This document shows, piece by piece, positions 56,156 to 59,774 of a DNA stretch of 64,000 nt (position 1 is its first letter; each line of letters begins with the position of its first letter). The notes below the pieces were generated by a model. The model was given only the letters and a program-made list of their open reading frames with translations. It had not been told where the DNA came from and searched no databases. Position numbers and translations under genes: made by a program. The stretch spans positions 6,572,001 through 6,636,000 of the forward strand of contig NC_087250.1 in assembly GCF_037042905.1 (NCBI RefSeq), in the 5' to 3' direction. This DNA comes from Lytechinus pictus. Its lineage: Eukaryota.

Positions 56156-57249
56156 TTGACTGTTGGACGGCGGAGAGGGTTGCTGGGAACTGTGTGGTGA
56201 GTCCTTGCTTCGGATACACTAGATGATGCAGGTGACCAGGTTACCTTGATAGGAGAATGGTCAGACAGGTTGAGGGGTTCATCATTGTAGATCAGGAGGT
56301 TGGAGAAGTCACCAGCAGACTTGCTGTGGGTTAAAAAAGTGTCAATGTTGGACCGTTTGGTGCCATCATCACTTTCATAAGTGTAGGCCTCGCTGTCCCC
56401 AAGTGTCCTTGATAGGCACACCAAGTCGTTCTCGGCCATGAAAGAGTCAAGAATGTTGAATGCTCTTTTTTTCCGTTCCTTGTTATGGAGATCCACATTC
56501 AAGTCACCACCAATGATGACACTGCTAGACCTGTTCTGCTGCATGATGCATTGGATTTCTTCTAAGATGGCCTGGTATTCGGCGAGGGCTTCAGATGAGG
56601 CATCACAAGGCATGTAGCAGTTGTAAACCAGCACATTGTGTTTTCCAAAGAGCAAATGGAGACAAAGTACCCTTGGAGAGATTGTTGGAATAACCTTTAG
56701 TGAGCATGGGAGCACCTTCTTGACAAGGGTGGCAACACCTCCTCTGCCTCTTCTAGTTGGGAGAGAGCATAGCTGATCATGGGCTTTGGAGAAGGCATGA
56801 AAATCTGACTGAAGATTATTCAAGAAACCTAGTTCACCCTCATGAATCCAGTGCTCTTGAAGTAGTAGAAAATCAGTCTGTTTGAGTAGTAGAAGAATGA
56901 AGTCTCTGTTGGACTTTACCCCACGAGTATTGAGAGAAGATATGTGTAGGCTTGGTGTGGCGTTTACCTCCTCAGAGGAGGAAGCAGTTGCAGACTGCTT
57001 TTTGTGAGGTCCATGATTTGGAGGTGAAGTTCCCTGATTGAGACATCGATCGTGCTGGTAGGACCTAAGGATTGGACTGTCAACATATTCAGTAGAGATG
57101 CTGTGAGGTAGTATACCCTCTCCATTTGCCCGCAGTACGTTGCAGCTGATGCGCGGCCATGCCGAAAAGGAGAACTTTGCAACGTAGTGTCTCTTGTCCT
57201 TAACTGATCTTGAGTCCCTAAACCTGCAAAATTTTGCCCTTCCTCCTTG
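56152..57249 (-). CDS. LINE ORF2, APE-type endonuclease part (frame open from 57249, no upstream ATG)
   Basis: Manual translation upstream of the listed 56823 start gives LHISSLNTRGV...DFLLLQEHW. Further motifs GRGGVA, YMP, GGDLN, YTY, SNID and SDH.P are present. The first upstream in-frame stop is TAG at 57252-57250. Confidence 0.9.
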   Translation of the reverse strand, partial: QGGRAKFCRFRDSRSVKDKRHYVAKFSFSAWPRISCNVLRANGEGILPHSISTEYVDSPILRSYQHDRCLNQGTSPPNHGPHKKQSATASSSEEVNATPSLHISSLNTRGVKSNRDFILLLLKQTDFLLLQEHWIHEGELGFLNNLQSDFHAFSKAHDQLCSLPTRRGRGGVATLVKKVLPCSLKVIPTISPRVLCLHLLFGKHNVLVYNCYMPCDASSEALAEYQAILEEIQCIMQQNRSSSVIIGGDLNVDLHNKERKKRAFNILDSFMAENDLVCLSRTLGDSEAYTYESDDGTKRSNIDTFLTHSKSAGDFSNLLIYNDEPLNLSDHSPIKVTWSPASSSVSEARTHHTVPSNPLRRPTVK

Positions 57250-59774
57250 CTACACCTCTGGGCTTCAGCAGACAGGGAAGACAGAGTCTGTGATGGCTCG
57301 TTGTTATTTCTCGATGATGGAACAGTCGAGTGTTGGTCATTGTAAGGATAGAGGTTGAGAACAAATCCATCAGTTCTCCCTGACTTTGACTTCTCAGCAG
57401 AATCTGTGTTCCGGTTATCCAGGGCAGGTCGGCTGTTCCTACCTAACTGTTGGTGTGGACGCACTTCCTCCCCAGTGCGAGGTGTTGGCTCACCAGGGTG
57501 CTGTTGAGATGACATCTCTAGATTACCTTCAGGAAGATGATCAGCTTGATTCCTGCCTTCTTCACCATCCACACCAGGTGTGACAACAGGAAAGGTACAC
57601 TGGCGAGACAGAGGTTTCATTGACCCTGCTTTGACCACCGGGCTTCTACCAGAGTGATGTTGCTTCTGAGTGAATTCCAAGCTTTGCTTTGTGGAAATTG
57701 AGCCATTTGATGTTGCATTGTGGCTGAACAATGATTCATTAGGCAGACGGGTGCTGTTTTCATTCCGAGAAAACCCAGGAACCACATCAGTATCATCAGC
57801 AAAACTCTCAAATTTGTTGCTAGTTGGAATGTTATATAGGCCAGTCTTATCGTAGTGTGTAGAGTATGCAGCTTGAAAAGGAGGCGACAAGTCTTTGCTG
57901 TTGCTCCCACGATGTGGTGCATGATCTTTTCCACAAGCTGATTGTTGATGTCCACCCTGGTGTTGACCCATAGGTCTGGAAGAAAGGTTGGTGCGGGCCT
58001 GTTGACCATGATGGTTATATATTGATGATCCAGGTTGTGAGCGATGGTGGTATTTCTCATGACTATTGTTATCCCTACTCTTTTGACGCTGGGCACTATT
58101 TATAAAGAATCTGCTCCTTTGTAATCTTGGAGGATGTGATATATTAACACCAGATGGACTAGGTGGAGGTGACCTATCCAATGAGGCAGAATCACACCGA
58201 GATATATCTTGGAGACCATGGGATTTGCAAACTGCTGACAAAAAGTCAACTTGCAGTTGGAGGGATCGTAGCTCCACTTCCTTTTTGACCAGCGCACTTT
58301 TCAAGGAGACTACTTCTTTGTCCTTATTTCCGAGTATGATCTTATCATGAACACGCTGGTCTTGGAGACTCTTGTAATCCCTACGCAACTGTCGGAGCTG
58401 ATTCAGGAGTTGCTCATTCTCCATTAGAATGACCGTATTGATACTTGATTTTTCCTTTAGGTCTTCCCTGAGAACTTTCAACTGTTTGGAAGAAGAAGCA
58501 CACTCCACGCAAGTAGATGGTCGGCTATCATTGGTATTATGTAGAGCATCATTTGCTCCCACTTCACGACTACTGTCTCCCGGGCACAGAGAATCCTTCT
58601 TCCCATCTGCACATTCACAACCAGCAACTGGTGGGTAATCATTGTGGTCGCTGACAAGAGTAGCCATTATGGATTCAGTTTGGGTGGCATGTTCTTGAAC
58701 ATTAGGTGCTTCTCCACTGCTGTCCTTAGATTTGTTAGTAACATCAGGCTGTTCCAGCGAGATAGAAAGACGTAGCAGACCATTGATGGAGGAGCGAGGG
58801 CTAGGAGTTGTGGAATGAGCATCTCCCGGGCACGTCAAGAAGTCTAACTCTGTTTCAAATTGATCTTCTGTAAAGGCTTCTCTGGATGGATGACTTGGCG
58901 AGAACTCACTGCGCTTGTCATGGGAAGACTTGTCTTGAGGGTGTAAACTGGCAGGCAAGGGTTGAGCTACACTCGAGCATGTCAGGAAGTCCAGGTCTGA
59001 GCCTGATTGCTCTTCAGTATTGGACTGGCTTGGCAGGGAACACTCGCTGTTAACAGATGTGGTTGAATTTGTGGCAGACTTACATGTAATAGCAGAACAC
59101 GACACACAAGTGAAAGGGGCATTCTTGTCATTGATAAGCTGTGCTAAATCTTGGTCCAGCAGCCCTGTACACTCAAAGTGAATCCATATGTTGCATACAT
59201 GACATTGGATCGTATAGTAGCATGCGTGTGTCTTGCAGATGGGGCACAACAGATTCAGCTCGTCAGGGGAACACTCGCATACCTTGGCTGTAGCATTAAC
59301 TCCAATTTTCTGTGGTGAGCTTGCTATCCTGTAGATTTCATCCATGAGGCAATTTAAGCTTACTCTTATAGAGGAGTCAGATGTGACATCGCTAACTTGT
59401 AGGTCGACTTCTTGGAGAAGGGAAGACTTGAGCTCGTTGAGCAAGTGAAATTGTTTGCCACTGACAAACATGTGGTGGGTCTCCTCAAAGAATAAGATGG
59501 ATAACTTCTTTACCTTTCCTGCATCTCCACTTTTTTTCTTATTGTAGATTTCGAAGCCACAGCTCACTTGGCCACGATATGGAACGGCCATGTGTGCTGG
59601 GTTGAAAGAAGGATTTCTAACCAGAGAGTCACAAACAATATTTTTCATTCTTGCGTACAGATCATTTTCGAGTGCTACGTTTACAAATTTATGACCACCT
59701 TTTGTACGACCCTCTGAAGAAATTAGAAAGTCCATGGGCTCAGCAGAATTTGAGGGTGTACATGGAGTTGACAT
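56964..59774 (-). CDS. LINE ORF1p, 936 aa: N-terminal domain, PHD finger, coiled coil, long disordered tail
   Basis: C4HC3 PHD CPIC...IQCHVCNIWIHFEC...FTCVSC. Heptad-rich segment LREDLKEK...LQLQVDFL. S/Q/H/P-rich C-terminus. Confidence 0.9.
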   Translation of the reverse strand: MSTPCTPSNSAEPMDFLISSEGRTKGGHKFVNVALENDLYARMKNIVCDSLVRNPSFNPAHMAVPYRGQVSCGFEIYNKKKSGDAGKVKKLSILFFEETHHMFVSGKQFHLLNELKSSLLQEVDLQVSDVTSDSSIRVSLNCLMDEIYRIASSPQKIGVNATAKVCECSPDELNLLCPICKTHACYYTIQCHVCNIWIHFECTGLLDQDLAQLINDKNAPFTCVSCSAITCKSATNSTTSVNSECSLPSQSNTEEQSGSDLDFLTCSSVAQPLPASLHPQDKSSHDKRSEFSPSHPSREAFTEDQFETELDFLTCPGDAHSTTPSPRSSINGLLRLSISLEQPDVTNKSKDSSGEAPNVQEHATQTESIMATLVSDHNDYPPVAGCECADGKKDSLCPGDSSREVGANDALHNTNDSRPSTCVECASSSKQLKVLREDLKEKSSINTVILMENEQLLNQLRQLRRDYKSLQDQRVHDKIILGNKDKEVVSLKSALVKKEVELRSLQLQVDFLSAVCKSHGLQDISRCDSASLDRSPPPSPSGVNISHPPRLQRSRFFINSAQRQKSRDNNSHEKYHHRSQPGSSIYNHHGQQARTNLSSRPMGQHQGGHQQSACGKDHAPHRGSNSKDLSPPFQAAYSTHYDKTGLYNIPTSNKFESFADDTDVVPGFSRNENSTRLPNESLFSHNATSNGSISTKQSLEFTQKQHHSGRSPVVKAGSMKPLSRQCTFPVVTPGVDGEEGRNQADHLPEGNLEMSSQQHPGEPTPRTGEEVRPHQQLGRNSRPALDNRNTDSAEKSKSGRTDGFVLNLYPYNDQHSTVPSSRNNNEPSQTLSSLSAEAQRCSKEEGQNFAGLGTQDQLRTRDTTLQSSPFRHGRASAATYCGQMERVYYLTASLLNMLTVQSLGPTSTIDVSIRELHLQIMDLTKSSLQLLPPLRR

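Follow-up and report, generated by a model that had tools for sequence, protein, structure and literature searches.

How is the open reading frame (ORF) that comes second in a long interspersed nuclear element (LINE) translated when it overlaps the first one and no start codon precedes its catalytic part? The question is raised by a 64,000-nucleotide stretch of the Lytechinus pictus genome (contig NC_087250.1, positions 6,572,001 to 6,636,000; hereafter the window), the minus strand of which carries a two-ORF LINE at approximately 59.8-53.5 kb. ORF1 of this element encodes a protein with a PHD finger, and ORF2 encodes an endonuclease (EN), a reverse transcriptase (RT) and a C-terminal CCHC finger. 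An earlier note on this DNA had proposed that ORF2 is made as an ORF1-ORF2 fusion by a retrovirus-style -1 ribosomal frameshift at the heptamer A_AAU_UUU (site 1). The comparison of junction sequences described below indicates that, in the LINE clade which includes the window element, ORF2 is probably translated through a programmed -1 frameshift close to where ORF1 ends. However, the conserved slip site is probably not the one first proposed but the heptamer U_CCU_UUU (site 2), which sits 63 nt downstream of site 1.

Recomputation of the reading frames upheld the layout described in the earlier note. The EN frame begins upstream of the start listed for it, with its SSLNTRG and LQEHW motifs just past the ORF1 stop, and is open from 57249 to 56152 (minus strand). 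It lies in the -1 phase relative to ORF1 and overlaps it by 286 nt, in agreement with the approximately 285 nt reported before. The absence of an ATG that could open ORF2 was likewise reproduced: there is none in frame from 57249 to 56780, and the first methionine, at 56613, is EN residue 113 and lies beyond the catalytic N and QEHW motifs. Judging from the conserved alignment columns, a start at this methionine could not give a working endonuclease. Nor does the junction resemble that of L1 or SART1, as no in-frame ATG, CTG, TTG, GTG or ACG occurs within 36 nt of the ORF1 stop.

Site 1 is in the correct phase and, as had been stated, follows the TAG at the head of the -1 frame at a distance of 15 nt. 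Taken alone, this heptamer is weak evidence and not beyond chance, the probability of finding any strict in-phase heptamer in the 94-codon overlap being about 0.23. The overlap as such is out of the ordinary: given the ORF1 residues, the -1 frame is open from site 1 to the ORF1 stop with P = 0.04, and none of the 773 overlapping upstream windows of 68 codons has an open -1 frame. A +1 reading at UUU_CGG was ruled out, the +1 frame being stopped at 57091. No Rfam match was found in 56900-57400, and no substitution in either heptamer was present among the 40 listed of 523.

The evidence for a recoding signal comes from the relatives of the element. The EN alignment sampled the best 80 of at least 358 confirmed metagenome loci (at least 600 pattern matches) and eight loci from a genome collection, and the junctions of the sampled loci fall into two types. 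In type A, an ATG is located shortly before EN in 56 of the 58 loci with an upstream ORF; in type B (15 loci), ORF2 overlaps a long ORF1 in the -1 frame. The type-B loci were first chosen by eye, and the trees afterwards showed that they form a clade. In a quick IQ-TREE of EN, from which 7 of the 88 loci were omitted because their EN pieces were shorter than 170 aa, the 14 DNA loci of a group with 99% support are all type B, with zero type-A loci inside. Among the omitted loci, L081 is also type B, having a -1 overlap with an in-phase heptamer, and the junction of L035 is not on its contig. The window subclade is the sister of the type-B clade (support 94 in the EN tree and 100 in a FastTree of RT). 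The type-B loci represent approximately 11 lineages with a median EN identity of 32%; five are fairly close (47-71%), and the rest are 25-44% alike. Moreover, a C-terminal CCHC finger is present in seven of the eight long type-B ORF2s (the eighth, in L004, is cut short) and in none of 32 type-A ones, and among the sampled loci it is restricted to type B and the window subclade. We take the window clade, with its PHD-bearing ORF1 and CCHC-ended ORF2, and type B with it, to be probably RTEX, and type A to be putatively Proto2.

The type-B loci presumably represent DNA of animals that was captured in metagenomes and genome bins. Eight LINE contigs, namely L081, L082, L084 and L085 (from one metagenome-assembled genome) and L083, L086, L087 and L088, are filed in bacterial genome bins, most likely as host-animal contamination. 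In type-A loci (e.g., L006, L012, L023 and L026) the ORF1 stop lies 7-100 nt before the EN motif and ORF2 is mostly in the +1 frame, which makes these junctions candidates for SART1-like coupling; an ATG shortly before EN was not seen in L008, L025 and L063. Additionally, the predicted ORF2 proteins P0053, P0122, P0127 and P0146 have N-terminal extensions with FFR, FFV or FLP. These are what U_UUU_UUN read in -1 would give, and hint at many more members.

All 15 type-B loci contain an in-phase heptamer in the overlap: U_UUU_UUA in 12, U_UUU_UUG in two and C_CCU_UUU in one. The heptamers lie 2-28 codons past the opening of the -1 frame and 14-118 codons ahead of EN. An in-phase U6 run was found at 0 of 5,780 upstream ORF1 codons and in one of the 58 type-A control loci, and the codon phase at the end of the U6 run is identical in 14 of 14 cases. 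Ten of the 15 loci have no in-frame ATG before EN, the other five having one. The distribution of stop codons switches at the heptamer. In the 940 codons before it, the -1, 0 and +1 frames contain 75, 0 and 22 stops, respectively, and in the 330 codons after it 0, 2 and 22. The zero in the -1 frame after the heptamer is partly due to the way in which type B was defined, but the climb of the +1 stop rate across the heptamer, from 2.3% to 6.7%, is not. Such a rise is what coding in the ORF2 frame produces, so that the heptamer looks like the point from which the linker is translated. One type-B locus, L079, has at 2343-2703 a 102-codon overlap with C_CCU_UUU, like the window, together with two ATGs near the ORF1 stop, and possibly uses a mixed strategy.

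Thus the open -1 overlap, the lack of an ATG and the in-phase heptamer, whose conservation the earlier note had wished to see checked, recur in relatives. This bears on two rival explanations. The window copy is damaged, and it could be no more than a decayed element whose ATG has been lost and whose heptamer is incidental, for which the chance figure given above leaves room. However, siblings with intact EN-RT (P0002 and P0009), as well as P0004 of the sister family, are annotated from the same internal methionine, and the clade-wide pattern of overlap, U6 and stops goes so far beyond chance that at the clade level chance is largely refuted; we consider this explanation highly improbable. Slippage of RNA polymerase or reverse transcriptase on the T-run could instead add a base and fuse the ORFs at the transcript level, and a run of at least six T is present in 14 of 15 relatives. 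Such slippage, however, does not require that all 14 runs share one codon phase, and the homologous window site has four T only and L079 five. Such short T-runs rarely slip, and it is hardly credible that they fuse the ORFs here.

Which heptamer of the window corresponds to that of the relatives can be read from the flanking residues. Loci L003, L082 and L085 read F-L-x-x-G-R-A-S where the window reads P-F-R-H-G-R-A-S, and since these align, U_CCU_UUU of the window stands in register with U_UUU_UUA. When a profile of the 15 sites was run over the 959 in-phase window positions, site 2 ranked first and site 1 ranked 247; with only the bases 3' of the heptamer, site 2 still ranked first and site 1 ranked 501. 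In four ORF1s of the sister family (P0160-P0163), two of them from contigs equal in length to those of P0005 and P0006, conservation extends from QSS[PL]FRHGRAS as far as the stop, the onset being three codons before site 2, whereas at site 1 V-I or V-F stands in place of the N-F of the window. From within the window subclade, the predicted protein P0021 reads GFHQGRAS. If frameshifting takes place, these comparisons make site 2 quite probably the main site; that site 1 also or instead works is possible but not likely. The earlier note had thus placed a shift that now appears probable at a site that is probably wrong or secondary, having overlooked the second in-phase heptamer as well as the 1-nt deletion and the TAG-to-CAG variant described below.

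A case can still be made for frameshifting mainly at site 1 by means of a family-specific pseudoknot, with site 2 as an ancestral relic; this is a sub-case of programmed frameshifting, and its likelihood is not to be added to those of the other explanations. Site 1 is a strict canonical heptamer with a 9-nt spacer and a candidate pseudoknot that has a perfect 9-bp second stem (S2), with 5 of 200 shuffles doing as well in a scan that was crude and post hoc and ignored loop costs. No stop interrupts the -1 frame from one site to the other, and G-Q-N-F of the window resembles G-Q-D-F-L of L047 and E-N-F-L of L064. On the other hand, an open frame over this distance has about even odds by chance (P ~ 0.5), the profile rank of the site is low, and its residues are not kept in P0160-P0163, proteins that are shorter by 11 aa in this region. 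The nested fold of the 80 nt 3' of site 1 is weaker than 199 of 200 shuffles. The first stem (S1) of the pseudoknot is weak and both its loops are 26 nt long, and a variant at 57180 in runs X1 and X9 would disrupt one S2 pair if no compensating change accompanies it. We regard this sub-case as doubtful.

Several observations weigh against programmed frameshifting or against site 2. Kinship among the loci inflates all of the type-B counts. The window is the only source of junction DNA for its subclade, and the sister family has S-L-F at site 2, which, as read from protein only, is incompatible with a strict X_XXY_YYZ. The ORF2 of the sister family is called with M at the EN start (P0001 and P0006), although the codon may be ATG or TTG/GTG; most relatives carry L or I there. 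In leave-one-out scoring L079 and L084 fit the profile poorly (-10.3 and 0.9). A shared stable structure 3' of the heptamer was not found, the mean z being about 0 over the 15 loci at three window lengths; only 6 of 14 loci fall in the most stable quarter of their own ORF1 windows, no pseudoknot was found in 8 of 15, and site 1, the rival of site 2, has its own candidate. A downstream hairpin or pseudoknot common to the type-B loci was thus not supported by the fold z, the ORF1-window ranking and the pseudoknot scans, although weak stems occur in some loci. After site 2 the window has a GGCC-rich box and a stem which is in the top 1% of 35-nt ORF1 windows, yet not significant against shuffles (z +0.9).

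The position of the ORF1 stop also counts against frameshifting and favours termination-reinitiation, in which ribosomes that have completed ORF1 would begin again close to the EN start with no AUG, the way they do in L1 and SART1; the motif rich in U would then serve another purpose, for example as an RNA signal or in encoding FLxxGRAS. In all 16 cases, including those with a long overlap, the distance of the ORF1 stop from the EN start falls between -53 and +28 nt. After the heptamer, the two stops in frame 0 compare with an estimated eight or so if only ORF2 were coding, and in the window subclade protein conservation extends over the tail of ORF1. ORF2 translation in L1 and SART1 does depend on ORF1 translation (PMC2881922). 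However, reinitiation accounts neither for the fixed phase of the heptamer nor for the stretch without -1 stops that reaches back as far as the heptamer (14-118 codons among relatives, about 75 in the window), and 8 of the 16 junctions, including that of the window, lack any of the five start-like codons named above within 36 nt of the ORF1 stop. We therefore hold reinitiation to be unlikely, while the hydrophilic linker codons together with a functional ORF1 tail explain in part only why ORF1 ends near the EN start.

The last adverse point concerns RNA splicing. An AG directly follows the U-run (UUUUUUAG) in 9 of 15 loci and lies within 5 nt of it in 14 of 15, as in a 3' splice acceptor that would join an upstream AUG-bearing exon to ORF2. 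In the window, TTTTGCAG-G is found at 57231-57223, and site 1 (UUUUGCAG/G) is acceptor-like as well. However, a polypyrimidine tract is absent, the 20 nt before the run averaging 42% pyrimidine, and the AG stands in differing ORF2 phases among loci; after the homologous window site there is no AG over about 20 nt, and in L084 there is none over 17 nt. ORF1 is contiguous in all 15 loci, though spliced ORF2 RNA should have left retrotransposed spliced copies. None of the 11 listed joints is at these places, and the sole raw RNA run (X18, about 6% read) gave 17 reads with none over the junction, which is uninformative on expression or splicing. In our judgement splicing is very unlikely to account for the junction.

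Under programmed frameshifting, which we continue to prefer, most ribosomes would complete ORF1, so that the ORF1 protein would be in excess. A minority would slip back one base on the heptamer, U_UUU_UUA in most relatives and U_CCU_UUU in the window, possibly stimulated by the GGCC box or the weak stem, and would read through a hydrophilic linker into EN-RT-CCHC. In intact copies the resulting ORF1-linker-EN-RT-CCHC fusion would be about 2,080 aa long (870 + ~1,210), and because a protease domain was not seen, it is expected to stay uncut. We lean slightly towards a wider picture, in which an old clade of animal LINEs uses a Gag-Pol-like -1 shift at an HIV-type U_UUU_UUA (or Y_CCU_UUU), with no strong RNA structure kept across the clade, and in which a protein that binds the GGCC box may tune the shift. 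The unprocessed ORF1-EN-RT fusion would co-assemble with the ORF1 protein via a coiled coil and bring the PHD finger to the integration site, and the sister clade would be AUG-coupled.

The ORF1 frame of the window is open from 59837 (stop to stop), with its first ATG at 59774 and a TAA stop at 56966-56964, and has a full-length homologue of 933 aa (P0163). ORF1 carries a PHD finger, as judged by the C4HC3 pattern together with the predicted fold. The Pfam match (PF00628) is weak, with an E of 0.046 that is below the cut-off, but the Atlas places the segment in a PHD cluster (0.94), and the predicted model matches the PHD folds of Pygo, MLL and BPTF as well as VIA (Z 6.9, root mean square deviation 2.4, 58 aligned). 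The N-terminal part of ORF1 is homologous to the ORF1s of L084 and L085 (E 1e-12 and 5e-8). The alpha/beta domain before the PHD finger (59730-59300, minus strand; residues ~15-155) is common to these two, and by motif it is also shared by the ORF1s of L024 and L047, which are without the PHD pattern. Fold assignment of this domain was dropped, as only weak matches with Z below 7 were obtained (RNase H3, RnlA and KA1-like). A homologue search with the N-terminal part was blank even though P0163 is a close homologue, so that blanks from that search are weak. The C-terminal tail of ORF1 is identical to that of P0163 at 48 of 71 positions, compared with 14 of 60 just upstream. Past the slip site (57179-56964, minus strand) it is 68% conserved between the sister families, the endonuclease being 64% conserved, which suggests a function of the unshifted ORF1 C-terminus or a hidden RNA element.

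The element itself is an APE-type two-ORF LINE, with an APE endonuclease and a LINE-type RT in ORF2, ORF1 upstream and no long terminal repeats (LTRs), since no long direct repeat was found in 52000-62000. Proteins 98% identical to its ORF2 are encoded in L. pictus on three large contigs, which points to a young, low-copy sea-urchin family. The window copy is young but damaged. A 1-nt deletion near 56152 separates EN from RT; contigs of runs X1 and X9 are longer by one base there, and in the sibling proteins P0002 and P0009 EN continues uninterrupted into an RT that is three residues longer. The EN frame closes at 56154 as a result of the deletion, so that the fusion of about 2,000 aa suggested in the earlier note is beyond this copy. 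It could yield only ORF1 and EN, and the frameshift argument applies to the family. One X9 contig has a 2-nt insertion inside the overlap and is presumably a dead copy. Contigs of X1 and X9 also skip 57248-57380 (133 nt) and 55977-56998 (1,022 nt) with ends that are not GT-AG on the element strand, and these are probably deleted copies. The coordinates of the features are collected in Table 1.

Table 1. Features of the LINE and of its ORF1-ORF2 junction, in positions of the window.
Feature	Position	Strand	Evidence or remarks
ORF1, 936 aa	56964..59774	-	N-terminal alpha/beta domain, PHD finger, probable coiled coil, long disordered region, conserved 71-aa tail
PHD finger (C4HC3), ORF1 residues 177-226	59097..59246	-	pattern, Atlas, predicted fold
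TAG opening the -1 (ORF2) frame	57250..57252	-	reads CAG in one X1 contig
Site 1, A_AAU_UUU	57228..57234	-	canonical, in phase; not kept by the sister family
Candidate H-type pseudoknot 3' of site 1	57136..57218	-	S1 57218-57213/57176-57171 (6 bp, 2 G-U); S2 57186-57178/57144-57136 (9 bp); two 26-nt loops
Site 2, U_CCU_UUU (S-P-F), most likely -1 slip site	57165..57171	-	in register with U_UUU_UUA of relatives
GGCC-rich 'GRAS' box and weak 7-bp stem, candidate stimulator	57128..57158	-	6-nt spacer after site 2; stem 57157-57150/57134-57128
Dual-coding stretch: conserved ORF1 tail (frame 0) and hydrophilic ORF2 linker (frame -1)	56964..57179	-	conservation; stop pattern
Endonuclease, APE-type	56152..56949	-	Pfam PF03372 E 9e-12, PF14529 E 5e-10; no ATG until 56613; ends TGA 56154-56152
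Rest of ORF2 (RT-CCHC frame)	53534..56218	-	RT 55297-54620, Pfam PF00078 E 4e-30; PF13966 (zf-RVT) weak
C-terminal CCHC finger of ORF2	53869-53759	-	within the frame of the rest of ORF2
Probable short 3' untranslated region	53450..53533	-	sequence, inference; end approximate

Within the short 3' untranslated region there is a perfect 14-nt palindrome (53497-53484, minus strand), possibly an RT recognition stem, and no target-site duplication was found around the LINE. Upstream of it, long inverted repeats at 61309-61846 and 60486-60690, with arms 85-93% complementary, are probably two elements similar to miniature inverted-repeat transposable elements. A 158-aa frame at 39264-39740 (plus strand) resembles a death domain by eye in its middle part, where Pfam gave nothing at E 0.1. 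A scan of viral contigs found no relatives of the LINE.

Among known systems, human L1 and Bombyx SART1 are alike in having a bicistronic LINE RNA and making little ORF2 protein, and ORF2 of L1 is AUG-independent (PMC5009743, PMC2881922, PMC3894237). They differ in reinitiating past the ORF1 stop (at a spacer or UAAUG) and in making separate proteins; the type-A relatives look L1/SART1-like, and the window clade does not. The synthesis of LINE ORF2 has been called an open question, and the accessible text of that source lists reinitiation, internal ribosome entry sites and 2A peptides but not -1 frameshifting (PMC3894237). Frameshifting in non-LTR elements has nevertheless already been claimed, as there are precedents in Dictyostelium and Drosophila. 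According to a figure legend in a review, Dictyostelium TRE5-A and TRE3-A need a -1 frameshift; these elements are amoebozoan and target tRNA genes, and the text consulted mentions no slippery site, assay or PHD-bearing ORF1. Drosophila HeT-A is also a non-LTR element, the gag of which needs a frameshift (PMC5009743). It differs in that the shift is inside gag and RT is not encoded. RTEX, to which the window clade is tentatively assigned, shares a long ORF1, an ORF2 with EN-RT-CCHC and an occurrence in marine invertebrates. RTEX elements have substantial ORF1s (PMC3905857) and are common in gastropods (PMC11203168); the parts of these two sources that were available mention esterase ORF1s, which were not seen in the window clade, and no frameshift, and neither RTEX nor QEHW was found in the supplement of the latter as far as it was accessible. 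The literature searched contained no paper on this junction or on a clade-wide slip site in animal LINEs, although Repbase Reports and most subscription papers were outside the search and a note on an RTEX frameshift may exist.

The closest likeness is to the Gag-Pol junction of retroviruses and to flaviviruses of the Japanese encephalitis virus (JEV) group, where the structural ORF is overlapped in the -1 frame by the polymerase ORF, with the same heptamers in the same phase and 6-7 nt to a GC-rich stretch (PMC5009743, PMC2657137). U_UUU_UUA is the frameshift site of human immunodeficiency virus (HIV; PMC5009743), and Y_CCU_UUU, with G:U re-pairing at position 1, has been proposed as the site for NS1' of the JEV group (PMC2657137). 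In contrast to retroviruses, the window element is non-LTR and has an APE endonuclease, with no protease or integrase domain seen, and in contrast to both viral groups, no conserved strong hairpin or pseudoknot was found in the LINE clade. The feature is wider than the earlier note had seen, and a slip site conserved over approximately 11 divergent lineages makes the mechanism cheaply and directly testable. If the proposal is true, the annotation of ORF2 would change, as current models start at the internal methionine and drop the catalytic N-terminus of EN, and chromatin-guided insertion would have a candidate route in the predicted covalent linkage of PHD finger, EN and RT. It would also add natural U_UUU_UUA contexts that seemingly work without a strong hairpin, and LINEs would have reached the retroviral Gag-Pol solution.

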